A stretch of 63,350 nucleotides of DNA, the filler included, from Collodictyon triciliatum (Eukaryota), in NCBI GenBank assembly GCA_043381765.1. It is 8 parts of 8 records of this genome, joined end to end, with 100 filler letters (N's around TTAATTAATTAA, not from the genome) between each part and the next. Parts side by side here need not be neighbours in the genome. Positions count along the whole stretch, not along the records: positions 1 to 7,985 come from JBHJMP010003642.1; 7 more parts are not named here. One strand, given 5' to 3'. The notes below the pieces were generated by a model that saw only the letters and a list, made by a program, of their open reading frames with translations, did no database searches and had not been told where the DNA came from. Shown here in pieces: positions 6,323-63,350 of the stretch (position 1 is its first letter; every line of letters starts with the position of its first letter). Made by a program: the position numbers and the translations under genes.

Positions 6323-7795
6323 TCAAGGCTGCGCTTCCTTGTTGGGCAGCAGACATGACCCACGCTTCAGGTCTGTGATGAGAAACGGGCCAATCTTGTG
6401 TTGCAGCGTCTTCACAAAGGCAAAGCTGTGTTCTGTGGAGTCGACCTGCGCGCAGTGGTGATACTCGTCCGTCGTGATTCCAACCAGCTGCACAATTCGG
6501 ACAGCCCCGTTGGCCGTCTGAAGCGGCTCTAATTATTTTTATTTTTTTATTGTGTGATCAGTTGCAACAATCACAATCACAATCACAATCAATGTTATTA
6601 CGTGCCGATGCAAACAATTAAATTAATACTTAAATCGTACAAGATTCAGGAAGAAAGAAAGAAAAAGCAAACAAACCACTGACGCGATGAAAAAATGAAA
6701 AATAAATAAATAATAAAAATTAGAAAATCAACAAATGGATAGAAATTCAGCACAGACAGGCAGCACAAGACAGACCAGGAAACTGGGGGTCGGGCACAAA
6801 CAAAACCGCAGTCAGCTCAGTCTCCGGGCCGGCCTTGAGACTGAGAATGGGGCCGGGCAACAGCAGCGAAAGGCCGGGCACGATGGGGCCGTCTTCTGCA
6901 CTGGCGAGATAGTAGTGTGGCGGCAGGGGCTTCTTCGCCTGCAGCGCCAGATTCAGCAGCAGCTGGACGGGCCAATGCGGCGGGTCTTCGAGCGGGCCAC
7001 TTGCCGTGCTATTGCTGCCCAGCCCGGCCTTGGGCCCACCGGCACTCGCCTCGAATTCTACCGGGTCGCTGGTTTCAGCGCCTGTAGCTGTACTTGTACT
7101 TGTACCTGTGCTAGCGCTAATGCTTGTGACAAGATTGGGGTTGTGATTAAGGCTGAAACTGAGACCAGGGTTTGTGGGGGTGCCCAGATTGATGGGGTTC
7201 ACAGGATTTGCTGCTGGCGACGCGGGGGCATTGGTCAGTGCAATTCGCTGCGGCTGCGGCTTCACCAAAGACGGCTTCGCGTGGAGGGCGGGCGGTGCTG
7301 GCTTTGCTGCCGGTGGGCTCTGCTGTTTGGGTGTCGAGTTATGAATACATAGGTACATGGTCTCTTTGTTAGATTGGCGTGGGTGTGCGTGGGAGGTGGG
7401 TGAGGAAAGGTAATATGGGCAGAAACAAACTGGAGGCTCGATATTTGAGCTTGTGTTCGTGTTTGTGATGGTTGTGATGATGGTCGTCTCTGCGGGCTGG
7501 ACAGCTATTTGATTGAGATTCAGCCGCGGCAACTCCGAGACAGTGTTAACTTTGAGGACGCCGCGCTTCCATTTGACACCACAAGCATTGCAGAGCGTCC
7601 CTCGGCCGAGTGGCCCGTGTCGCCACAACACCGTCTGCTTTGCGTGGCAGTGTGTGCATCGACGTCCGTGCGAATCGCCCGTGCTGTTTGGCGGCCCCGT
7701 CGGTGGAATCAGAACAGGAGCTGCATTCCCGGTCGGAGCTGCAGGGACGATGCGCCGTGTCTGTGGAACTCGGATCGACAGCTCGATGCCCAGTC
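6323..7795 (-). CDS. Suppressor-of-fused (SUFU)-domain protein with an inserted GATA zinc finger; 5' end missing at contig edge
   Basis: Exons 7795-6776 (possible in-frame intron 7430-7323) and 6528-6323. SUFU motifs in order: GLGIELSIRV, PPHWPVQLLLNLA, LTAVLFVPDPQF, PLQTANGAVRIVQLVGITTDE, GPFLITDLKRG. GATA finger CTHCHAKQTVLWRHGPLGRGTLCNACGVKW (CX2CX18CX2C) lies between the first and second SUFU motifs. Confidence 0.85.
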
Positions 7796-7985
7796 CTGTA
7801 TGTGTTTTGGTTTCCCATTTTTAGATAAGCGGTGGTTTTTGGTTTTTGGTTTTTTGGTTTTTGTTTTGTTTTTGTATTTTTTTTGTTTTTTTGTTTTTTT
7901 ATTTTTTTGTTTTTTTGTTTTTTTGTTTTTTTGTTTTTTTGTTTTTTTGTTTTTTTGTTTTTTTTGTTTTTTTGTTTTTTTGTTT

Positions 7986-8085
7986 NNNNNNNNNNNNNNN
8001 NNNNNNNNNNNNNNNNNNNNNNNNNNNNNTTAATTAATTAANNNNNNNNNNNNNNNNNNNNNNNNNNNNNNNNNNNNNNNNNNNN
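7986..8085. other. Artificial contig spacer (44N-TTAATTAATTAA-44N); same spacer at 16071-16170, 24147-24246, 32222-32321, 40285-40384, 48353-48452 and 56415-56514
   Basis: Identical 100-bp linker with stops in all six frames. The first seven contigs are 7962-7985 bp, roughly in descending size order. Confidence 0.98.
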
Positions 8086-11000
8086 ATACCATTTATTCAC
8101 ACCTTCGTCATAAACGGTGCATCCAAAAACACCAAACACCTCTCTTGCGACCGAGTAGTATATAAAAAACAGAAGATTCAAGGTAATGAAAACAGCCTGC
8201 AATAAAAAATAATTTTCTATTACTACTAAAGATGAAACTGAAACAAAATGGAGATTTATAATTGAATATATTTTTTCATCCTTACTTTGTTCTGCTTGTG
8301 TCCATATCCGAAATAGTACGTAGCTGAGCCAACAATGATAAAGATTGGTATTCTTGCAAAACTGAACATCAGAGAAGCAAACACATCGTCTACTCCAAGG
8401 ACACAGGAAAGGCTGGGAAATTGAATTGAACCAATCGACGATGAGACTTCGATAAAGCTGTTTGCACTTTCTGAAAGAACGATTCCACCAGACACAATCG
8501 ACAGTGTTTGCATGTGGAACATGATTATCCTGAGTTTCGCTGAATGAAATATTCTGATTAATATGGAAAGAATAAAAGTGAAAATAATTAGTAACATTTA
8601 CCTGATTTTGATGTCTCTGTGAGATAAAGATAGCAAACGAACATAAAAAATCCAATCGAACCAAGAACCATGGTTGAATAAATCGTTCCTTTATCGCATT
8701 TCAAACATGACCTTCCGTGATTTCCGTATCCATTCTGGCATTTTGAGCAGGCATAACCTTCATAACCCTCTTGACAAAGGTCTGTGATTTCGACCGTCGC
8801 ACTTGAATTCGAAATTTTCTCTGGAATCGATAAATCACATGACTCGCGACGTGGACATGGCAGTATTGATTTCACAGACGTGACGCTTGGTGAAGCATAG
8901 CAGAATTTCAAGGACGTTCCATCAAGGCAATCACACCCTCTTGGGCATTGAACGCAGTTATTTCCAAAGCCAAAATATCCAGGCAAGCATTTACAAAATT
9001 CAAAGCCGTAGTATTCTGGATTCAAGTCAACCTCCAACTCAATCAGACCAGATTTCGAAATAATGGAAGGACAAAGGTAGCGTTTCGTTTCATCTTGGAG
9101 ATTGAAAGATGTTGTGAAATTCATGAAATCAGGAAGGAAATTAGCTGTTCCGTGATTCATCAATGTTTTGTTTAATCCCAGATACTCAAGCTTTGAAAAT
9201 CCGATGTATGATTCAGGAATGCTCCCAACAATCGGATTTCCAGTGAGGTCAAGGGAATTCCATCTCAATAGAGTTGTAAGGTCATCAAGCTTAGTGATGT
9301 TGTTATTCTTAAGGCTAAATGTTTTTATGTTAAGAACAAAGTCAAATATCCACCAATTCAATGCTCCATTCAATTGGTTGTCATCAAGCAAAAGGTTTTC
9401 ATAAAAGTAATCGTAATTCACTGAAGCTGGTGAGATGAAAGTACCAATGTCTCCTGAAAATGAGTTGTTTCTTAAGTCAATGGTGACTAAATTCGGCAGA
9501 TTCCAGAATAAATCAGGCATGCTTCCAGAGAATTTATTGTGGGATAAAACGAGTGATTTCAGCTCTGGCAGTCCCTGAAAATAGGCTGGGACTATGCCGT
9601 TCATTTTGTTCCAAGACAAGTCGATGTATTTAATTGATGGTAATTTCCAATTTTCTGGGATAGAGCCACTGATTTGGTTTTCGCTCACATCCAGTCTTGT
9701 CAGGTTATTCAGATTGAACATCGGTAATGTGCCTGACAGCTTATTTCGGAACAGTACTATTTCCTTGATTATTTTGCAATACTTGAAATCTGGGACCTCT
9801 CCCTCCAACTGATTCTCATAAACAGATAAAATCTCCAGTTTACACATATTTGAAAAGTTTGGAATTGCGCCTAAAATTACTCATTAATATTACAGGAAAT
9901 ATGAAATCAAAAGAAATAGAAAGGGAAAATAGTAGAAATCACCATTCAATCTGTTTCTATCAAGGTAAATTATTTCTGCATTTGGATTTCCATTAAAATT
10001 TGGAACGGTTCCTGTAAAAAAGTTAGTTTTGTATCAATACTACATGAAATTAATAATAAAACTCACCATCCAATTGGTTGTTGTCAAGAGAAATTATTTC
10101 AATATTTGGAATTCCACTGAAGTTTGGAACGGTTCCTGTAATATAAAGTTAGTTTTCATCAATAATACATATAATAATAGTATAACTTGCCAGTTAATTG
10201 ATTGCTGTAAATAGAAATCCTTTCAACATTTGGAATCTTACTGAAGTTTGGAACCGTGCCTGTAATATAAAGTTAGTTTTGTACCTATAATACATGAAAT
10301 AATAATAAAACTTACCATTCAACTGATTGCTGTAAAGATAAATTATCTTAAGATTTGGAATTCCACTGAAGTTTGGAACTGTTCCTGTAATAAAAAGTTG
10401 GTATACAATAAATAATACATAAAATAGTACTTAAAACTTACCAGTCAATTTATTGCTGAAAAGATACATTCTTAAAACTATCGGAATTTCACTGAAGTTT
10501 GGAACTGTTCCTGTATTATAAAAAAGTTAATTTTTATCAATAATGCATGAAGTGATAATTAAAACTTACCACTCAATTGGTTGCTATCAAGAGAAATTAT
10601 TTCTACATTTGTAATTCCGTTGAAGTTTGGAACTTTTCCTGTAAAAAAAAAAAATTAATTTTTATCAATAATACATAAAATTATTATAAAACTTACCACC
10701 CAACTGATTGCTGTAAAGAGAAATTATTTTAACATTTGGAATTCTGTTGAAGTTTGGAACGGTTCCTGTAATATAAAGTTAGTTTTGTACCTATAATACA
10801 TGTAATAATATAAAAACTTACCATCCAACTGATTGTTGGAAAGATAAATTATTTCAACATTCGGAATTCCACTGAAGTTTGGAACTTTTCCTGTAATATA
10901 AAAAAATTAATTTTCATCAATAATACATGAAATTATTATAAAAACTTACCAGTCAATTGATTGTTGTGAAGATAAATTCTTTCAAGATTTGGAATCCCAC

Positions 11001-25817: not shown

Positions 25818-28800
25818 ATGAAAAAAAATCACGCCAAAAAATGAAGAACAACTGGTCTGGACAAGTCAATTTGCCTCAGAAATCTCTCTGCGAAAGTGGT
25901 CATCTTGTTTACATGTCTTCTAGTTGCCTGTACGCATGGAAGGTCGTATATAATTTCGTAATAAATCGTTTTAATTTTTGAGTGTTGACCTTTTTTATAC
26001 GAATTTCAGAAAAGAGCGCTCCAGTGCGTGCGAGTACAGCCGAGAGGACCTTCTATCCATGAAAATTGAAGAATCTATGTATCTACTTCTCGATCTTCAT
26101 AGCGATATATGCCCTCATCGGCCATCAGAAGGATTCGGAATTGACCAATACGAAAGCGCTCTTCTCCATCAAAATACACGACAATTTTATGACTCTGAAA
26201 TTTTATTACTAAACAACAGTCCATCCGAAAATAACCAAATACATAACCACGGAAGCCATCGATTTGTGAACGAACATCTCCTAGGAGAACTGCATGGGCA
26301 TCAAAGCAAGATGTCTCATGATTCTACAAGGAATGATTCTAACGAGCTCTGTTCATCAGAAGTGTTAGAGCGAAAACTTCTTAATCAGCTCTACAGTACC
26401 CTAAATGGAGATAATTGGAGCAATAAATCTGGCTGGACAAATACTTCTGTTCCAATATGTGAGTGGTTTGGGATAGAGTGTTACCCCCAATGCAGCGTCG
26501 AAATGGTTAAAGTGAGCACCGTATTTTAGAAATATGTTTTTTTTAATCCATTCACATATAAAAATATAATTCAGTAAAATCGCTATTACGCATGTAGAAC
26601 GACCTTTGCTCTGTGATAGGTATTCTTCTGCCAGGGAATAATCTTGATGGCAACATTACTATTGTGGGCGAAATATTGGAGCAGTTCTCTTATATCCAGA
26701 GGATTAACTTGAGTTTGAACTCAATTTTTGGGGATATACCTAACCTGAATCTGACTACGGTGACATATTTGAACCTAGTCAATAACCAGATAACGGGAAC
26801 TTTACCTGATTTTAGCGGAATGAAGTACATTAAATCATTGTGGGTAGATAAAAATCTGAATGAAGGAACTATTCCAAATTTTTCAAATATACAAATGGTT
26901 CAAAGTTTAAGAATAGGGGATAGCAAGAACATTTATGGTATGTGATGAGAGGTTAAGTGCATCGAAAAAAAACATACCATGAAGAAAAATAATCGAACTT
27001 GTAATATCTGCTTCAAAATAGGTTCCGTTCCTAACTTCAACAACATTAGTAGCGTCTCATTACTTGGAATTTATGGGTGTCAGTTGGAGGGTTTGTTCGT
27101 CAATTTACCTTGCTTCATACCTATTTTAAAACAAAAAGTGTATCCAATTTCTTCGTGTCATAGGAACCATACCAGAGTTCGATGATATCCCTATTCTCGA
27201 AAGCCTCTATTTGTATGACAACATCCTGTCAGGTTCTGATATTTTGACTTTATTCAAACATATCCATAATTTTATTTTACAGCTTAGTGGTTGTGAGTCC
27301 TGTCAACTCTGCGTATATTTATCCATAGATAGTACCGCATGCACTTAAATTAATTTATGTTTGTATTCTTAAGGAACTGTGCCAAACTTCAAGTTGCATC
27401 CTCGGCTGAGTGTTTTATCTATTTTTGGAAATAGACTAACAGGTTTGGTGCCGGTACAGACAAATGCATATTCGTTTGTAATTCTTTGTGCACTCACAAA
27501 CATTTTTCAACAGGCACAGTTCCAAACTTCGACTCGATTCCAAACTTATCTTTAATATCAGCCTCCAGCAACTACATTGATGGTATACATTTGTTGGTCA
27601 TTGTTTCCTCTGTTTTCAAGTGCTTAAAGTAATCATATATTAGGGACAATACCTGATTTCAGCTACGTTCCACAAATAAGTTTTATCGGCCTACCAGATA
27701 ACCTTTTAACTGGTTTGTTCTACTTGGATATCAGATCTAAAGTACCTTTCCTTTTCTTAATACTGACTAAATGCTACGAATATTATATAAAATGGTGTAG
27801 TTATGACTAAAGTGTAAATAATTAACCACCTTATACCCAAGGAACCATTCCAAAGTTCAGCTCTATTCCTTTCGTTGAGACCCTCTTCCTATATAGCAAT
27901 TTTCTCAATGGTAAATTCTGGATAATATGAAGAATTTAAATATGCTTGTAAACACACATCGAAGCACAATCATATATAATGATGTTTAAATTAATGATTA
28001 GGCACAGTACCAGAATTCACAAATATGCCAAACATCTTTCTCATAGACATATCTGTCAACATGTTGGAAGGTAAAAAAAAAAAAAAAGACACTGCATTAT
28101 AAGATAAAATAATGCGCATATACTTATCATTCTATGATATCCGTATTCTACAGGAATAATACCGGATTTTGTGAACATCAGTTCAATCGTACAAATCAAC
28201 TTGTCGGATAATCTTATCAATGGTGCGCCTCATTGCCTTTCGAGGAAAATCATTTATGAAAAAAAAAAACGACAGAGAATAGCACTATTAACTTATTGAG
28301 CCTTTTCAATAAATTAGGAACAATCCCGACTTTATCTCAGCTAGTGTATTTAAAGGAGATTTACGTAAATGAAAATAACATTACGGGGACAATACCGTCA
28401 TTTACCGACTCTCCATCACTAGAGGTTATATCTTTGTTCAGAAACAACTTGTCTGGAGGCTTGCCCAACTTAATGTTTCAATCTCTTAAAAGGATTGACT
28501 TCAGTGAAAATGTCATATCAGGTTCCATTCCTCATTTATGGAGCGTTCCTTCCATTCAATATATTGACCTTTCCATGAATAATCTGCGTGGGACTGTCCC
28601 AAGCTTTTTCCAAAATTTGCATGAATTGAAGTCACTCTCATTGGCTTGGAACTGTTTGAGTGGGAGAATGCCCTATAATTTTTGGGGGTTGGCCAACTTA
28701 GTTTCGATTGACTTGAGTCACAATATGTTCTCGGGTGATGTTGGAGTGTTCATTGTACCCAATGTAAATATCTATACGTACTATTACGAAATATTGCTTC

Positions 28801-31263
28801 TAGATTACAATCGTCTTAGTGGAGAAATTAATTGGAGACTCTTCAACTTTCTAACAAATCTAAGAATCCTAAGTTTGAAGGCCAATCAGTTATCAAAACT
28901 CGACGATGTCACCAAATTAATGAAATTCACTTTCATTCACCTTTCCAAGAATCCTCTGATTGGCAGTATTCCTTTCTCTTACAACAATTTTCCAAAGCTT
29001 CAGTATCTAGGAATCAGAAATACATCACTCAATCACGGAAGCGATACCTTGTTACCAAGCTACATGAACTTCATGCCGCCATACAATTTGCAAGAAAAAA
29101 ATGAGCTCTTTGTTTGTCCCTCAATATTTTCGAGAGTCGGTATTGTTGAAACAGAGGTAGATATTGACCCATCGTATTACGATTACGAATTCTGTCAATG
29201 CCTTCCAGGATTTTTCGGGCTCGGAAAAAAGTGCGTGGCGTGCCCAAAAGAATGTGAATGTAAGGACGGAGTGTCACTGAAGTATTGCCACCCCTCACCA
29301 AATATCACTCATATACGTGATGTTCATGTTTGCCCTCGACCAGAATCGTGCCATATAATCCTCCCAATTAAATATTCTAACGTCTCGAAATCGTCGCAAG
29401 TGACCAACTTATGCGAAGAAGGTTACGAAGGCCATAGCTGCTCAAAGTGCAAAGACGGATATGGCGCTCAAGGGAGAGCATGTGTGAAATGCCAAAACGA
29501 TGAGACAGTAACTACTTATGCAATTGGCTCAGTTGCTTTCGCTCTCTTTCTTATGTACCTCTACTTATTTGAGAGGTCATCGACTGGTAAGCGTCTTAGT
29601 TTAAATGGGCGTGATGTCATTTTTTTTATATTCTGAGTGTGATGAATTCGCTCTATTCGAAATATTAAACTCAATTGATTTATAGCCAAGCTGCGGATAA
29701 TCCTCTTTCATATGCAAACGTTGTCAGTGATATCTCCTGTGTTGGTTCAATCAGACAGCGCCAGATTTTTCATCGAAGTCTCTTTCTCCATCGGCTCAAT
29801 TCAGTTCCCAAATAACTCATGTCTTCTAGGTTCGACAGGTGCCTTTGAACTCCTAGTGCTCAGTTACATCAGGATACCCATATTTACCCTCATCGGGTTT
29901 GCAACATATAGGCTGGCATCTGGAAATCTACAGAACAAGGTACCATAAACCGAGTAACTAATTGTGTGGCTATATTAGATTTATAAACAGGTCACTATCT
30001 ACACCACTAGGCAGTTTTCATCACCTTCAACCTTTTGTTTTTTATTTACTACTCGATTGCCAAAGAAGTCTTTGGTGTATTTGGATGCACTGTGCACGAG
30101 GGACTTGAAGTCTGGTACTTAAACTACGCACCTTGGATTGAGTGCAGTCCAGCATCAGATGAGTACTTAAAAATGATTGCAATATCGATTCCTGTTTTTT
30201 TCTTGTTTTTGTTGGGGTATCCGCTGTTGGTGTGGAGTAAAGTCCGGGAAATGAATGAAGATTCGCCGTATGATAGCAAGGCGCGTTACGGATTTTTGTT
30301 CCTGCCTTATAAGCGGGTATGTATGCGATGTCTTTTTTCTTTTACTTTTTACTTTTTTACTTTTTACTTTTTTCCTTTTCACTTTTTTCTTTTCTCATTT
30401 CTTTATCTTTTCTTTATCTTTTTCTTTATCTTTTCTTTATCTTTTTTCTTTATCTTTTTTCTTTATCTTTTTTCTTTATCTTTTCTTTATCTTTTCTTTA
30501 TCTTTTCTTTATCTTTTCTTTATCTTTTCCTTTTCACTTTTTCCCTTTATTTTTTCTTTATCTTTTCTTTATCTTTTCTTTATCTTTTTTCTTTATCTTT
30601 TTTCTTGATCTTTTCTTTATCTATTCTTTATCTTTTTTCTTGATCTTTTCTTTATCTATTCTTTATCTTTTTTCTTCACCTCCTTATTTTGAATCAACTT
30701 TGCGCTTATCTCGGCAGAGCTACAAATTCTGGGAGTTTATCGTGATTATGCGACGTTTGGCATTCTCTTTTGCTACGAGCCTTCTCCCATACACACAGCC
30801 GCATATGTTTTTCCTTTTCTTAGTGGTCATCATACAGGTGATTATTTCTATATCTAGCTCTGTGATTTTTGTATTATTTATGTTTAGTATTTTCATATAA
30901 TTGTTGTATTTCAGCTAGAACCGCGCCATATTACCAGAAATCTAACCCCACTTCGTTTGCTCTCGATGCCAGACTTCTATTTTGCTGCAGTCCCAACACA
31001 AACCATACCAAGCTAAACTAGAGAATCAGATGGAACATTCCAGTCTGATTCTCATCACAATATCGTATCTTCTTGCCCTCTTGTCTACTTTCCTTGGGTC
31101 GCAACTCTGGCTGTCCTGGTTCTTTATCCTTCTGAACACTGGTTGGTTGGTATGGGCGGTGGGCAAGGCATTCGTCATCCCATTCACAAAGAGAGAAAGG
31201 AGTATCAAGTCCACCCTCATCGCCATGAAGCGATACAAAAGACATGAACCCTTATTGAGTTAA
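25818..31263 (+). CDS. LRR receptor-like multi-TM protein, paralogue of 8086-12447; start codon uncertain
   Basis: Same architecture: CEYSREDLLSMK, LYSTLNGDNW..ICEWFGIEC, eight 69-nt LRR exons (27022-28222), Cys-rich region, then KLRIILFHMQTLS, WYLNYAPWIEC, YGFLFLPYK, FWEFIVIMRR and KPYQAKLENQME (TRP/PKD-like C-terminal TM motifs). Stop at 31261-31263. Confidence 0.85.
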
Positions 31264-42607: not shown

Positions 42608-44002
42608 TTAAATTATATTCGATTCTAAAATATCGCCATCTGATTTTGTCACATTCTTACCATATGTTAGTATTCTTCTTAGCTTCTCTAGATTCTTTTT
42701 CTGATAAAGCAGAAGTGGAGCTTTTAAAGCATCGCCATACTCCTTTACATATTTATCATACAGTTTCTGAATCTTTGGTTTTTGTGCTTCCAATTCTTCT
42801 TTCCTACCTTCCTTTCGAATGTCAAACTTGCCAGTGCGATTTGTAAAGTTCTTAGCTAATGACCATAATACAGTATATGCTTTACGAGCTGCTTGTGCAT
42901 CTGTTGACAAACCTGGTCTACCTCTTGCTTTTCTCATATCACTATCCTTTTTTACAAAATCTACTTTCGGTTTAAAGTCTTCTGGAGTTTCATCATCGAC
43001 AGGCTGTAAATCTCTGCGCAGATACTTTTTCTGCTTCAATATCTTTTTGTCTTCCTCGCTGCCTTCCAAAATATATTGTGGTGCTTTGAATCCTTCTTTG
43101 TGTACGATGACTTTGTTAATTGTAAATGTTTCATTTGAGAATTTAGGTATCCAGCCTTTTTGTGTTTTGTATTTGTTTCTTTCTTGTGTCGTTAGATTTG
43201 TTTTGTTTAGACTCACTCTTACTAACTGGCCTACTTCCAACAGATTGTCTTTCTGACTAACTTTAGCTTTATCTATTTTCTCTTGATTTGCTTGAATCAA
43301 CTTTGTCATGTTTTCTTTTGTAGCAGCATTGTTAGGTATGACTCCTGTATGTCTATTTGGTTGGTCATTAATACTATCAACTGTCTTTTCCAATATATCT
43401 TTATTCAATACTGAATCGCCAGTCTTTTGTTGATACTTGTATAAAGCATTCTTTACAACTTGATTCATTCTTTCCACATACGCTTGAGATGTAGGGTTAT
43501 ACGCAGAACTCTTTACGTGTTTTAGATTATTTGCTTGTAGCCACGACTTGTCATATTTAAATTCTGTGCCGTTGTCTGTTTGCACCACTGTCAAGGCTGG
43601 ATAATCTTTTTTTAACTGCTCCACTGCTTTCTTTGATTCCGCTAGCGTCTTGTCTTTCATAGGATATACAAAAACCTTTCGCGTCAATAGAACAACACAC
43701 ACCATTAGATATTTATATCCATCTGCCAATTCAGTATCATCTTTATTTAAATTCTTTACATCTATCAAATCTAGTTGGGCATATCCTGGGGATGTCACGT
43801 TAAATGGATTCACATCCTTGCTCTTTAATGCTCTTTTATTTATTTGCTGGTAGGGATTCTTTTTCAACCAGCGCGCAATGTAGGTCCTAGGAATCTCCTT
43901 GTTGAAATGTCTATACAGCGAGTCTATGCTATTGACCTGACCCGGATCGTTAAATCGCTTCTGTAACTTCTCATCGTAATTTTGACTAGAGCTTTTTTCC
44001 AT
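42608..44002 (-). CDS. Retroviral-type (rve, DDE) integrase of Polinton/Maverick type, 464 aa
   Basis: QLDLID (D1), YKYLMVCV, QTDNGTEF (D2), SQAYVERMNQ (E). Polinton-type C-terminal block VGQLVRV..KGWIPKFSNETFTI..YLRRDLQPV. Frame intact. Confidence 0.93.
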   Translation of the reverse strand: MEKSSSQNYDEKLQKRFNDPGQVNSIDSLYRHFNKEIPRTYIARWLKKNPYQQINKRALKSKDVNPFNVTSPGYAQLDLIDVKNLNKDDTELADGYKYLMVCVVLLTRKVFVYPMKDKTLAESKKAVEQLKKDYPALTVVQTDNGTEFKYDKSWLQANNLKHVKSSAYNPTSQAYVERMNQVVKNALYKYQQKTGDSVLNKDILEKTVDSINDQPNRHTGVIPNNAATKENMTKLIQANQEKIDKAKVSQKDNLLEVGQLVRVSLNKTNLTTQERNKYKTQKGWIPKFSNETFTINKVIVHKEGFKAPQYILEGSEEDKKILKQKKYLRRDLQPVDDETPEDFKPKVDFVKKDSDMRKARGRPGLSTDAQAARKAYTVLWSLAKNFTNRTGKFDIRKEGRKEELEAQKPKIQKLYDKYVKEYGDALKAPLLLYQKKNLEKLRRILTYGKNVTKSDGDILESNII

Positions 44003-44081
44003 TATTATAATCTACATTTTAATTTACCCAAATAAACGCAACTTAAAAACAATAGTACATATACATGTAAAAACCTACAAC

Positions 44082-44306: not shown

Positions 44307-44332
44307 ATTGTGTGTATCACACTATTTATTTT
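44300..44332. terminator. Palindromic hairpin between convergent genes
   Basis: AAAATAAAT-T-GTGTG-TAT-CACAC-T-ATTTATTTT; same architecture as 42571-42604. Confidence 0.65.
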
Positions 44333-46644
44333 TATTCATCATCAATGATATGTTTCTTCTTCAAATGTTCTTTGACATATTTGTCGCAAAACTTGTACTT
44401 TCTGGCTTGATCCTTTTTGATTCCTGTCCTTTTCAACTCTTGTCCAAAATATTGGATTGTCCATATATCTTTACGTCCTGCTCTTATCATTACCTCTTTG
44501 AACAGATCGTAAACTTCTGTGGGTGTATGAGTCTTAACATATATGGCAGCAAATCTATCATTTGGGCCACTGAGCATGTAATCTTCATAAGTCATTTGTA
44601 AGAACTGGTCCATTTGTGAAATTTGTAAATGTATCTGTTGTTTCCAGATTTCCTTTTCTTTTTGTTTACCAACAACATAACTTTCACTGTTCCAATTATC
44701 ATCATACTTTGTAAACAGATATCTACAAAATGTCAATACTTGTTCTTTATCCTTTAGAGTATTCTTTAAAAGTTGTTGATCGTCCTCAGGCATCTTTTCT
44801 TCTTTACATTGCACAACCACATATCGTCGATTGCTAACAGACATATTAAAGACTGATACATTGTTTGTATTACAACATATGTGGACATAGTTGTTAGTCG
44901 TATACTTGTTTTGACCTTTCTTGTGAATAACAATGTCATTAGCCACTAAAGCATCTTTCATAACATCAGTAAACTGGACAGCTTCCTTGCGTTGTCCCTC
45001 CTCTAGCAAAACATATAATTTGTTCTCTAGTAAATCGTTAAATTCACCAAAAAACTCGGCCATCTTGCTCGAACTTACCCCATACTGCTTACCGATGATT
45101 TTTTCTATTAACAAGTCATGAGTAATAAATGATTTGCCAATACCCTCTGTTTCGCTATAGAAAACAAGACAAGTATGAAAACGACCCATCTCATGAGGAG
45201 CAAACAATAAATGAGCAAACCATTGTATGACATAAGCATAAACGTCAGAATCTCCATTACACAATCGATAATATAAATGTATGTTGATCGGGTTGTCCTT
45301 GTAAAAATGGCTAGCCTCTTCATCTGTAAGTTGTACCTTTATGTCTCCATGCTTTTGTATTTCATAACCTCTGAACATATTGTATGTTTGAGGATATATT
45401 GATTGATCTAAATCTATTGGTAAATCTGGACGCATCACCAGTTTACTGACTATTCGTTTATGTTTGTCTCTTTTCAAATCATCAATGAATTCAATGTCAG
45501 CTTTCGAGATTTTGTAATGATAATGTCCGTATTGTACTTTGGCTTCACTTTGCGTATATGTGTGTAACGTACCATCCTCGTTAATTCTCATAAATTTACC
45601 ATTCATGATAAAATGGTCTTTTTCGTATATTTCCTTGATATAGTTGTAAGCATAATGTCCTTCTTTTGCTTTGACATCTTTACGTAACTCGGTAAATGTG
45701 TCACGATCTAGGTATTCTAGAAATAGGTCAAACAATGTTCCTACTCCTAACTCGCTCTTGACTTCGTTTTGCTGAACATTGTCGATCACACTTTTCAGCT
45801 GATTGATTCTATCTTCTGTAGTCGATTTGGATTTATCTGGCATTTGCTCACAAATTCTTAACCAGAACTTTGTCACATCACGTAACCCATTATTAACAAT
45901 TATGTAGCATACCTTTATCCATGTGTCATAGTCATCTGGTAAATTTTTAAACAACTCCTGGTCTAAAGCCATTCTGACTAAACATTCGCATGTTGCTCTT
46001 TCTTGGAAATCAGGAAATTTATTTCGATTAACCTTGATTTCTTCTATCTCTGGGTCGACTGGTGTGTCAGATGTTTGTGGTTCTTTTCTTTTCTTTGACT
46101 TGTACTTTGCTATCAGAGGCGTCATGTCAAATTCCTGTATATTGTTGTATATCAACTTGTCTTGTCGTTCCCACATGTTTTTTGTTTTGAATATGACATC
46201 TATGTCCGGATATTTTTCGTCTAAAACTTTTGTGCCCTCCCATTGCGGATTCCAGTTAGCTGGCTTCTTTATGTACATATGAATGCCTTTTGTGTTTCCT
46301 GGTGTCCAACACATATCATTTGTAAAACTTGCTATTCCCAATTTTTCTCCAAGTTGGCTAGGAGTGTGTATGTTTTTGTCATCACAGTCAATGCAAACAA
46401 CATCCCAGTACTTTAGAAATAATGAGAAACATCGTTGAACGTTTTTGCTTTCTTCCACTCTCAAATTGCGTTTCAATCTAGCAATATAATTACCTGATGA
46501 CTTGCTTTTTTCTTTCCATTCGGGTAAATCAACCAACGCACAGTTGTTTTTCTCTCTAACCGTTTCTTTTTGCCCATCAATCAAAACATAATGCGCATAC
46601 GCATATGGCACTTGTTTAGTAATCAAAAACTCTCCAATGTCCAT
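44332..46644 (-). CDS. AEP primase(-polymerase)-PriCT-SF3 helicase fusion (NrS-1/D5-like), 770 aa
   Basis: AEP motifs VCIDCDD, TPGNTKGIHMY and DIDVI. PriCT-2-like DYDTWIKV..FW. Helicase YVIQWFAHLL, Walker A SETEGIGKS, FGEFN..ENKLYVLLEE (Walker B), CNTNN, arginine finger NRRY. Confidence 0.9.
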   Translation of the reverse strand: MDIGEFLITKQVPYAYAHYVLIDGQKETVREKNNCALVDLPEWKEKSKSSGNYIARLKRNLRVEESKNVQRCFSLFLKYWDVVCIDCDDKNIHTPSQLGEKLGIASFTNDMCWTPGNTKGIHMYIKKPANWNPQWEGTKVLDEKYPDIDVIFKTKNMWERQDKLIYNNIQEFDMTPLIAKYKSKKRKEPQTSDTPVDPEIEEIKVNRNKFPDFQERATCECLVRMALDQELFKNLPDDYDTWIKVCYIIVNNGLRDVTKFWLRICEQMPDKSKSTTEDRINQLKSVIDNVQQNEVKSELGVGTLFDLFLEYLDRDTFTELRKDVKAKEGHYAYNYIKEIYEKDHFIMNGKFMRINEDGTLHTYTQSEAKVQYGHYHYKISKADIEFIDDLKRDKHKRIVSKLVMRPDLPIDLDQSIYPQTYNMFRGYEIQKHGDIKVQLTDEEASHFYKDNPINIHLYYRLCNGDSDVYAYVIQWFAHLLFAPHEMGRFHTCLVFYSETEGIGKSFITHDLLIEKIIGKQYGVSSSKMAEFFGEFNDLLENKLYVLLEEGQRKEAVQFTDVMKDALVANDIVIHKKGQNKYTTNNYVHICCNTNNVSVFNMSVSNRRYVVVQCKEEKMPEDDQQLLKNTLKDKEQVLTFCRYLFTKYDDNWNSESYVVGKQKEKEIWKQQIHLQISQMDQFLQMTYEDYMLSGPNDRFAAIYVKTHTPTEVYDLFKEVMIRAGRKDIWTIQYFGQELKRTGIKKDQARKYKFCDKYVKEHLKKKHIIDDE

Positions 46645-46825
46645 TCTCTTGTAAGTACTTTAATAATGTATATTAAACGCATTTCTTTAAACCAACATTT
46701 TTGACTTTTTATGCTAGACTGTCAGAGTTAAATGACTTTTGGGGCAACCTCCGTATAAAATAAAAATCGTTTGTTCAACAAAATAACTTTCTTCTCTCTC
46801 TATGAAACCCTTTAAAATCCTGTAT

Positions 46826-47130: not shown

Positions 47131-47853
47131 TTAAAAGAGGATCTCTTCCGTAAAGTTCTTGTAAGCCTTGATTCTACGAGGCACCATCAAGTTGACGTAG
47201 AGAAAGCAATAGGGGTCTGCTGTAGCAAAATCAAAGACTTCATCAAAGAGTTTCTGATCGAGATTTGTCATTTCATTGAGAGCCTCTCGTTCGTGTTTGT
47301 TGTCTGTAAAGAAAGCTACCAAGTGGCTTGCGTTTTGACGGACTTTCGGATTAAACAATCGAATGGCATGACCCACTACAATCATAGACAACCTGTAGTG
47401 CCTGTGTTGAAGCATTTTCTTGAGCAAGGTCTTACTCGGTCTTTCAAATGAAGTACCCAAGTCATCTACCACGAGGAGGTAAGCATTGTCTTTGAAATCG
47501 GGGTCCTCTGTAATGTCGTTTGTAATTTTCTCAAATACCTGCTCATTGAAATCGTCGTACATGCGACTTTTGTGAAATTTGACACCCTCGTAACTCGAAT
47601 CGTGGATTTCTCCTCCGGAAATGTTTGAAGAGCAGAAATACACTTTGTCAAAGATCTGGTGATACATTTCCTTCTTTCCCAGCAAATTACTGATTAATGT
47701 CGTTTTACCACTAGCAACTTTCGCAGAGATGAGCATCCAGAATGGCCTATCACTTTTTGCGTCTGGTAATATATCCAAGATTACTTCCCGCTTGTTTTTC
47801 TTGACTGTCTGGAGTGGTTCAACCTTGATGTTGTTTATCTTTTTGCTTTCCAT
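47131..47853 (-). CDS. A32/FtsK-HerA-family genome packaging ATPase, 240 aa
   Basis: Walker A variant ISAKVASGKTT, Walker B LLVVDDL, family motifs HRHYRLSMIVVGH and PKVRQNAS, C-terminal PYCFLYVNL..YKNF. Confidence 0.93.
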   Translation of the reverse strand: MESKKINNIKVEPLQTVKKNKREVILDILPDAKSDRPFWMLISAKVASGKTTLISNLLGKKEMYHQIFDKVYFCSSNISGGEIHDSSYEGVKFHKSRMYDDFNEQVFEKITNDITEDPDFKDNAYLLVVDDLGTSFERPSKTLLKKMLQHRHYRLSMIVVGHAIRLFNPKVRQNASHLVAFFTDNKHEREALNEMTNLDQKLFDEVFDFATADPYCFLYVNLMVPRRIKAYKNFTEEILF

Positions 47854-47855
47854 AC

Positions 47856-48182
47856 TTATCTAAATAAAAGATTTGAATCATATGAGAGTTCTCTGACTTG
47901 AGCCTTGTCTACTGTTTCCTTAATTCTTCGCTTTTCGATTTTTCTAGCCTCTTCCTTTGTGAGATACTGTTTGATTAAAGACACGTCGTGCTGTAACGAA
48001 GAATAGTCGTGAATGGGTTTTTTGACAGCCTCGTATTTCTTGACCGTCTGGACAATCTCCTTATTCATCTTTTTCGCTTCTGTCGCTTTTGGTTGAATTC
48101 TTGCTAGATGTGCTTTCTGCTTTTCAGAGGCTACGCGTTTCTTTTTTGGTTTCTCAATGGTTTCCTTTTCAGAATCACTCAT
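47856..48182 (-). CDS. Element Lys-rich protein, 108 aa
   Basis: KPKKKRVASEKQKAHLAR basic segment; stop is 2 nt before the ATPase ATG. Confidence 0.75.
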   Translation of the reverse strand: MSDSEKETIEKPKKKRVASEKQKAHLARIQPKATEAKKMNKEIVQTVKKYEAVKKPIHDYSSLQHDVSLIKQYLTKEEARKIEKRRIKETVDKAQVRELSYDSNLLFR

Positions 48183-59444: not shown

Positions 59445-62537
<3,093 letters not shown>

Positions 62538-63350
62538 GGATTGATGGGTTCACTTTTTATCTTATTTTATTTTATTTTTACTTGTTTTCTTTTTTATTTT
62601 ATTTTTACTTGTTTTTCTTTTTTATTTTTACTTTTTATTTTATTATTATTTTATTATTATTTTTCCTTTTTTCTTTTATTATTTTCTTTTCATTTTTCTT
62701 TTATTATTTTCTTTTCATTTTTCTTTTATTATTTTCTTTTCTTTTTTCTTTTATTATTTTCTTTTCTTTTCTTTCATTTTTATTATATTTTTATTTTAAT
62801 TTTTATTCTTACTTGTTTTTCTTCTTTTCTTCCACTTTGATTTGATCTGGCGTGTTTCTGATGGGCTGCGGATGAGATTTAAATGAATGCAAAAGAAGGC
62901 TGCAGTAACCTCGTATAACGAATATCACTATTATTGGATTATATTATTTTTGGAAATGTTCGAATGCAGCGAAGCTTCTGGAACTGTGTCCATTTGTGGA
63001 ACCATTTATGCTTGGCTGTGTTTCTTGTGTTGCTGATCTCGAATGTTTTACTTTTTGTTTGAGCCTCGGTTTTCTGTGGAGCCCAACTTTTGCAGAGGCC
63101 GCCGAACAACAGGACGACTCGCAGACGAATCTCTTATCGACACCGTTTGAGCCACTGCCTATCCTCTCTTCTCTTCATATTTTTTCTATTTTACTTTTCT
63201 CAGTCGTTTTTTGTTTTTTGTTTTTTTATTTTTTGTTTTTTTATTTTTTGTTTTTTTATTTTTTGTTTTTTGTTTTTTGTTTTTTGCTTTTTGTTTTTTG
63301 CTTTTTGTTTTTTGTTTTTTGTTTTTTGTTTTTTGTTTTTTGTTTTTTGT

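Follow-up and report, generated by a model that had tools for sequence, protein, structure and literature searches.

To our knowledge, nearly all work on suppressor of fused (SUFU) concerns two roles, repression of GLI in animal Hedgehog signaling and immunity in bacteria, and what it does elsewhere in eukaryotes is scarcely known. Here we report on a 63,350-nucleotide stretch of joined contigs from the protist Collodictyon triciliatum (GCA_043381765.1), referred to throughout as the window, which contains a gene combining a divergent SUFU-like domain with a GATA-type zinc finger nested inside it. This SUFU–GATA arrangement is a real and conserved domain architecture, apparently undescribed and so far limited to CRuMs; it is a variant of known families and not a new kind of system.

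SuFu has been described as a versatile scaffold for protein binding, both in bacterial immunity and in animals (PMC3113570, PMC3482391), and has a superfamily signature of GxS, E, E, and DxxR (Zhang 2012 Table 3, PMC3482391). The same table gives fusions of SuFu to SUKH, ankyrin, several Imm domains, and PsbP/MOG1, and places eukaryotic SuFu in chlorophytes, ascomycetes, choanoflagellates, and animals. Binding of a GLI1 peptide requires both domains of SUFU together with Tyr147, Asp159, and Glu376 (PMC3852661), and animal Sufu is present on target promoters, where it recruits the GATA-finger protein p66beta/GATAD2B (PMC4233246).

GATA factors with an 18-residue loop (Arabidopsis GATA18, PDB 8j48, and fungal factors) have the same CX2CX18CX2C spacing, TxLWR and LCNACG motifs, and basic tail as the window finger. 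In the known GATA factors of which we are aware, the finger is flanked by disordered regions; in the window protein, unlike these, it sits inside another globular domain.

Structure of the SUFU–GATA gene

The window comprises eight joined contigs (7985, 7985, 7976, 7975, 7963, 7968, 7962, and 6836 bases) separated by N44-TTAATTAATTAA-N44 linkers, the first at 7986-8085 and six more thereafter; because these contigs are non-contiguous, gene neighborhood across the joints has no meaning. The SUFU–GATA gene lies on the minus strand near the end of the first contig (1..7985), and the coordinates and strand given in the preliminary description were correct, with 7795 the first exon base and 6323 the last base of the TGA stop codon. 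The G+C content of the contigs is 0.30-0.40 (AT-rich), versus 0.55-0.64 in the coding part of the gene. A minus-strand open frame of 357 codons (7820..6747) is entered through the AG acceptor at 7797-7796, which is the only AG in range and therefore sets exon A at 7795..6776. Spliced to exon B, it gives 1221 nt, or 407 stop-free codons, within the window. The features of the gene are as follows.

7796..7985, minus strand: 3' part of the upstream intron, read directly and extending to the contig end, with the AG acceptor at 7797-7796
6776..7795, minus strand: exon A (SUFU strand, GATA finger, linker, and start of the SUFU C-half); an open frame, collinear in tblastn with Diphylleia residues 100-456
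7767..7795, minus strand: last strand of the SUFU N-half, (G)LGIELSIRV, the equivalent of human GFGFELTFRL (residues 115-124) as aligned through protein P0062
7581..7658, minus strand: GATA-type finger CX2CX18CX2C with basic tail GVKWKRGVLK, from Pfam PF00320 and a regular expression
6990..7544, minus strand: low-complexity linker of 185 amino acids (composition P 26, S 23, T 22, A 20, N 16)
6776..6989, minus strand: part 1 of the SUFU C-half, EDPPHWPVQLL ... VPDPQFP, from the family profile; 63% identity to Diphylleia (tblastn)
6529..6775, minus strand: GT..AG intron of 247 nt, AT-rich; its removal restores the frame, and the spacing is as in the Diphylleia transcript
6326..6528, minus strand: exon B, part 2 of the SUFU C-half, PLQTANGAVRIVQLVGITTDEY ... 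GPFLITDLKRG; matches human SUFU and Pfam SUFU positions 120-171 of 172
6323..6325, minus strand: TGA stop, 12 codons past the DxxR motif

Exon A encodes, in order, (G)LGIELSIRV, 36 residues, CTHC-X18-CNAC, the tail GVKWKRGVLK, the linker, and EDPPHWPVQLL...VPDPQFP, and exon B reads PLQTANGAVRIVQLVGITTDEY...GPFLITDLKRGSCLLPNKEAQP before the TGA. The claim that a complete GATA finger and a long linker occupy the loop between the first two SUFU motifs in one open frame is thus borne out by exon A. The upstream intron holds an (A7C)n / (TTTTTGTT)18 microsatellite (the (TTTTTGTT)18 as read on the plus strand; Tandem Repeats Finder array at 7843-7985), which probably caused the assembly break at the contig end, and the second intron holds an (ACAATC)4 repeat at 6567-6591.

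The closest relative of the gene is a transcript of Diphylleia rotans, residues 100-456 and 457-518 of which align collinearly with window positions 7799..6774 and 6526..6341, respectively (tblastn). Diphylleia residues 1-99 had no tblastn match anywhere in the window, and the N-terminal part of the SUFU domain therefore lies past the contig end at 7985. Thus, of the SUFU domain attributed to this stretch, the C-half is present, and only the last strand of the N-half is in the window. No Pfam match was found in the antisense open reading frames (ORFs) or in the ORF downstream of the stop, an Rfam scan of the window returned nothing, and a scan of the 3' flank for bacterial promoters and terminators, which is not meaningful for a eukaryote, likewise gave nothing. 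With its spliceosomal GT..AG intron and its closest relative in Diphylleia, the gene is a genuine eukaryotic one of expressed type, from a CRuMs relative of Diphylleia and of freshwater-protist type, in keeping with the earlier attribution to a protist protein that joins SUFU to its own finger.

Nesting of the finger in other CRuMs

Relatives were named from a protein cluster look-up as EukProt transcripts. They comprise three Diphylleia rotans isoforms (P0024, 534 amino acids; P0003, 349; P0025, 177) and one protein of Rigifila ramosa (P0004, 441 amino acids), so that the search for the same architecture in other protists, which the preliminary description had proposed, was successful. Diphylleia P0024 matches Pfam SUFU in two stretches (63.4 bits) and Pfam GATA between them at residues 135-166 (44.9 bits); Rigifila P0004 scores 53.3 bits for SUFU and 49.8 bits for GATA. 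Because these assembled transcripts carry the same nesting, the finger is in the mRNA of both species, and because both nest it at the same point, the nested arrangement is old within CRuMs, with both SUFU halves kept in two CRuMs lineages of different orders.

For mapping of the insertion point, a profile hidden Markov model (HMM) of the SUFU family was built from 81 SUFU-only proteins. On P0024 it aligns as positions 8-97 (residues 24-116) and 98-209 (residues 385-516); since model positions 97 and 98 are contiguous, an insertion of 268 residues interrupts the model at a single point. In searches of the PDB, the N-half match ends at position 149 of the 4km8 chain and the C-half match begins at position 145. 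The human numbering is fixed by the residues Tyr147, Asp159, and His164, as named in PMC3852661, the spacing of which fits the 4km8 chain index minus 20. With a family member aligned to 4km8, FRL corresponds to human residues 122-124, the loop to K125-A132, and PPTWP to 133-137. The cut thus falls at human residues ~125-132, and the insert replaces the 8-residue loop K125-A132, which lies at the surface and links the GFGFELTFRL-type strand to the PPxWP helix. In place of these eight residues there are 261 in the window protein, finger included, 276 in Diphylleia, and 136 in Rigifila. This constitutes a clean natural case of one globular domain inserted in a loop of another.

The Diphylleia protein also has an N-terminal basic cluster (KRRK), which we read as resembling a nuclear localization signal. 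Of the shorter Diphylleia isoforms, P0025 ends just past the finger and contains only the SUFU N-half and GATA, and the ORF of P0003 starts inside the linker and contains only the SUFU C-half; alternative splicing, incomplete splicing, or noise in the assembly may account for the two.

Identity and conservation of the SUFU and GATA segments

The window contains all five SUFU-like motifs in the order previously recorded: GLGIELSIRV, PPHWPVQLL, PDPQF, LQTANGAVRIVQLVGI, and GPFLITDLKRG. The spliced 407-residue product scores 66.2 bits against the family HMM, with model positions 98-208 on residues 269-399, and exon B alone matches human SUFU (E 4.1e-6) across QPVQTPFGVVTFLQIVGV...GPWLITDMRRG. The signature residues E (GIELS), E (TTDEY), and DxxR (TDLKR) all occur in the window, and the GxS signature, which would be within the missing N-terminus, is represented by YGMSE in the Diphylleia orthologue. 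Based on these motifs and profile matches, the flanks are SUFU, albeit divergent SUFU. The SUFU domains of CRuMs are fast-evolving.

The window finger matches Pfam PF00320 with an E-value of 2.2e-12 and 46.8 bits, against a cut-off of 26.8. Its CX2CX18CX2C spacing is common to the window, Diphylleia, and Rigifila proteins, and the four zinc cysteines and the TxLWR and LCNACG motifs align with solved DNA-binding GATA fingers; in a PDB search, the finger of the Rigifila orthologue matched Arabidopsis GATA18 at 1e-9 and GATA3 at 1.1e-10. Between the window and Diphylleia proteins, the finger and tail are identical at 33 of 38 positions, compared with 73 of 133 (55%) in the SUFU C-half, 17 of 33 aligned positions in the stretch preceding the finger, and 26 positions in linkers of 185 and 212 residues (about 14%). 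The finger and the SUFU parts are more strongly conserved than the linker, and the finger is the most constrained segment between the two proteins, which is hard to square with an intronic or non-functional finger.

Distribution of the architecture

In a word-indexed search with window exon A, 21 proteins were returned at E <= 0.01, two with Pfam SUFU and one with both SUFU and GATA. The corresponding search with the Diphylleia protein returned 20 proteins, among which, besides the cluster of the query itself, only the Rigifila protein had both domains; a protein search with alignment A2 returned two proteins, and no relative emerged from a genome-contig search with P0062. When the Rigifila protein was run in a full HMMER scan against 1.84 billion representatives, 3212 matches fell at E <= 1e-3, and the best 150 of these were listed. 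A protein with both domains would be expected near the top of such a scan, although clustering can hide cases, given that the full-length Diphylleia form is itself not among the listed matches. Across 190 collected proteins, the SUFU C-half occurs in 95, the finger in 98, and both in four, each of these four being a CRuMs protein or the window exon; none of the SUFU-only proteins examined carries a finger. In a profile scan of metagenomes with alignment A4, 80 loci matched the finger only and none of the 80 had SUFU halves, which is weak evidence because most of the contigs are 1-3 kb.

A literature search found no text that joins "suppressor of fused" with "Diphylleia", and that part of the matching works on CRuMs taxa which was covered makes no mention of SUFU. 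Likewise, PMC3482391, the one paper found to name Pfam PF05076, has no GATA fusion among the SuFu fusions of its Table 3; its supplementary tables were outside the search. The suggestion that this architecture had not been described therefore agrees with both the sequence and the literature searches, which gave no match elsewhere.

Relation to bacterial SUFU proteins

The top SUFU-only relatives among the best 150 of the 3212 matches are proteins of ~350 amino acids that score up to 90 bits against Rigifila. Twenty SUFU-only clusters were looked up: two had organism names, both bacterial (WP_433611363.1 of Dactylosporangium sp. and a protein from a Lachnoclostridium metagenome-assembled genome), two had a functional label only, and 16 had neither. 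The idea that the ~350-residue family is eukaryotic was accordingly dropped, both of the organism-named clusters being bacterial. As a separate observation, bacterial proteins of this length (P0106 and the P0078 cluster) are strikingly close to human SUFU: the Dactylosporangium protein alone gives 155 bits on the human SUFU N-domain, and a profile dominated by the ~350-residue family aligns with both human SUFU domains at E 1.9e-73. A study of bacterial Sufu-like proteins reportedly names only the N-terminal domain in its title.

Bacterial SUFU proteins of the Imm-SuFu superfamily share with the window protein the SuFu signature of Zhang 2012, but have a contiguous domain without a finger, whereas that of the window is split and contains one. 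They are prokaryotic and tied in the literature to toxin-immunity loci; the window gene, in contrast, has an intron and is in eukaryotic DNA. An ORF scan found no toxin-like ORF within 5.5-8.8 kb, and in place of the toxin-adjacent prokaryotic locus that defines Imm-SuFu immunity proteins there are a GT..AG intron, AT-rich eukaryotic flanks, and a protist closest relative.

Trees were calculated from 124 columns of the C-half in 90 rows, without animal sequences. The MAFFT alignments A1 and A2 misplace the Rigifila halves, and alignment A3 and HMM alignments were used instead. The window protein groups as sister to the Diphylleia protein (SH-aLRT 99). The three CRuMs proteins were not united in the free quick tree, and with FastTree they fell in a clade of five with two finger-less proteins (support 0.82). 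A tree constrained to a single CRuMs clade was 15.46 log-likelihood units better than the free quick search, and the clade was not rejected by the approximately unbiased test (p-AU 0.677). A single origin of the nested form is thus compatible with the tree data, although unproven, with long branches involved.

Comparison with animal SUFU

The N-domain of animal SUFU (human 1m1l, 4km8, and 4bl9; Drosophila 4kma) is homologous to that of the CRuMs proteins and has the same motif order; matches to human SUFU in the PDB were obtained with Rigifila (1.2e-9, 40.8 bits) and with the Diphylleia N-half (about 1e-6). Animal SUFU has a C-terminal clamp domain, whereas the window and Diphylleia proteins (hereafter Diphylleia-type) stop soon past DxxR, before any such domain, and Glu376 is absent along with it. 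The disordered region of vertebrate SUFU also has no counterpart of that type in the Diphylleia-type proteins. The tail of the Rigifila protein aligns with the second domain of the family, up to position 306 of 349 in the model. In alignment A3, the window and Diphylleia proteins retain Tyr147 (HYYL), for which Rigifila has His, and Asp159 is replaced by Leu in the window and Diphylleia and by Thr in Rigifila; this residue mapping is approximate, because a 9-residue insertion in the Diphylleia-type proteins precedes the stretch. Judged by these features, the window protein is not an animal-type SUFU.

The vertebrate SUFU–p66beta complex (PMC4233246) resembles the CRuMs fusion in that a SUFU domain and a GATA-type finger occur together, in vertebrates at chromatin, but there GLI brings two separate proteins to DNA and the finger of p66 is of a divergent type, whereas in CRuMs both domains belong to one protein. 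We regard any link between the two as one of analogy and not of demonstrated homology.

Proposed function

We lean, with modest confidence, towards a role for the SUFU–GATA protein as a nuclear regulator that would bind GATA sites through the finger nested in its SUFU N-domain and dock a partner protein through that domain. The two SUFU segments are predicted to fold back into one SUFU N-domain, leaving the finger on flexible tethers (36 and 185 residues in the window). Based on its motifs, the finger would bind GATA-type DNA sites in the nucleus, at which the SUFU domain would hold a partner protein or recruit one; the result would be a self-targeting version of the role of animal SUFU, which needs GLI to reach promoters. 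The two-domain clamp mode of animal SUFU is impossible for the Diphylleia-type proteins, since they have no C-terminal domain. That the nesting is shared with two other CRuMs hints that SUFU may work directly on DNA in these organisms. A SUFU domain with its own finger, kept in at least two CRuMs orders, would offer a concrete and testable role outside Hedgehog signaling, namely the docking of partners at GATA sites.

Several observations weigh against a functional SUFU–GATA regulator. About 100 N-terminal residues are outside the window. On Pfam SUFU (PF05076), exon B by itself reaches 20.5 bits, under the 25-bit cut-off, so that the Pfam assignment anticipated in the preliminary description held for the finger and for the SUFU domains of the Diphylleia and Rigifila orthologues, and failed for this exon. 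PDB searches gave no match for the 94-residue first part of the C-half alone at E <= 10, nor for the Diphylleia C-half isoform P0003 at E <= 0.01. The SUFU domain is very divergent, with Rigifila at 40.8 bits against human SUFU compared with 155 bits for a bacterial SUFU-domain protein, and the ARYVF helix region contains the 9-residue insertion of the Diphylleia-type proteins. Moreover, we infer all three of the DNA binding, the nuclear location, and the partner.

GATA-type fingers can also act as protein binders, as in p66/GATAD2 proteins and the FOG-binding N-fingers of animal GATA factors. A finger that serves as a protein- or histone-binding module, or as an intramolecular lid on the SUFU docking surface, and is no DNA reader, is therefore conceivable, and would suit both a nesting that places the finger close to the SUFU surface and the binding of a GATA-finger protein by vertebrate SUFU (p66beta; PMC4233246). 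We nevertheless consider it unlikely: the finger scores 20 bits above the GATA cut-off (46.8 versus 26.8), it aligns best with solved DNA-binding fingers and keeps TxLWR, LCNACG, and the basic tail, and tethers of 36 and 185 residues disfavor tight coupling to the SUFU surface.

The divergence of the SUFU part, its 9-residue insertion in the ARYVF region, and the loss of the C-terminal domain and Asp159 in Diphylleia-type proteins could instead signify a plain GATA transcription factor whose SUFU segments are decaying, or persist as an inert scaffold without docking. We give this little credence, given that identity between the window and Diphylleia proteins is 55% in the C-half compared with about 14% in the linker, that the signature E, E, and DxxR are kept, and that both halves persist in two CRuMs lineages from different orders.

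Homology to human SUFU, the Tyr147 of the window and Diphylleia proteins, and the C-terminal domain that Rigifila retains in alignment with the second domain of the family would accord with an animal-like SUFU that closes around a short motif in a GLI-like zinc-finger factor and represses the factor. Such a mode is very improbable here: GLI1 binding needs both domains together with Tyr147, Asp159, and Glu376 (PMC3852661), and yet the window and Diphylleia proteins end before the C-terminal domain and have Leu in place of Asp159, and Rigifila has Thr at that position and His for Tyr147.

An artefact, in which chimeric assembly or a wrong gene model has fused a GATA gene to a SUFU gene, is scarcely credible even though the window comes from a fragmented assembly with ~8-kb contigs and Trinity transcripts can be chimeric, since the strand motif, finger, linker, and SUFU helix are in one unbroken exon of 340 codons, the same order recurs in independent transcriptomes of two other species, and the break in the family HMM falls at one exact position.

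The preliminary description also proposed relevance of the SUFU–GATA protein to the origin of Hedgehog-pathway parts. The protist SUFU–GATA fusion and its nesting are supported, but this proposal, as worded, is not: the clamp domain is missing from the window and Diphylleia proteins, Asp159 is replaced, and the SUFU-only proteins closest in score to the Rigifila form (among the best 150 of the 3212 matches) include bacterial ones. By itself the gene has no bearing on the origin of the animal pathway, because the protein is divergent, the clamp is lost in Diphylleia-type proteins, and placement relative to animal and bacterial SUFU proteins is unsettled; any bearing on Hedgehog origins is speculative. 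It is doubtful, for example, that the fusion is a Rosetta stone, whereby early eukaryotes near the base of Amorphea would have had a nuclear, chromatin-tethered SUFU working with zinc-finger DNA binders, a role that animals then split between SUFU and GLI and p66beta/GATAD2B. If that were true, the CRuMs protein would be a living, tractable example of SUFU acting directly on DNA.

Other genes in the window

One contig (40385-48352) has three neighboring minus-strand ORFs at 42608-44011, 44332-46659, and 47131-47859, which encode an rve-type integrase (E 3.2e-6, short of the Pfam threshold), a DUF5906 protein (9.1e-13), and a packaging ATPase resembling poxvirus A32 (1.4e-8). We take this set of integrase, DUF5906, and A32-like ATPase to be typical of an integrated Polinton/Maverick- or virophage-like element. 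Long leucine-rich repeat ORFs with a receptor-like look are present on two further contigs, at 8588-9880 (minus strand) and 28260-29636 (plus strand), both matching LRR_8 (E about 1e-18); in the former, the repeats are followed by a Cys-rich stretch. Finally, the minus-strand ORFs at 60074-60775 and 61398-62549 encode N- and C-parts of a homolog of the GATOR1 subunit NPR3/NPRL3 and are presumably exons of one gene.

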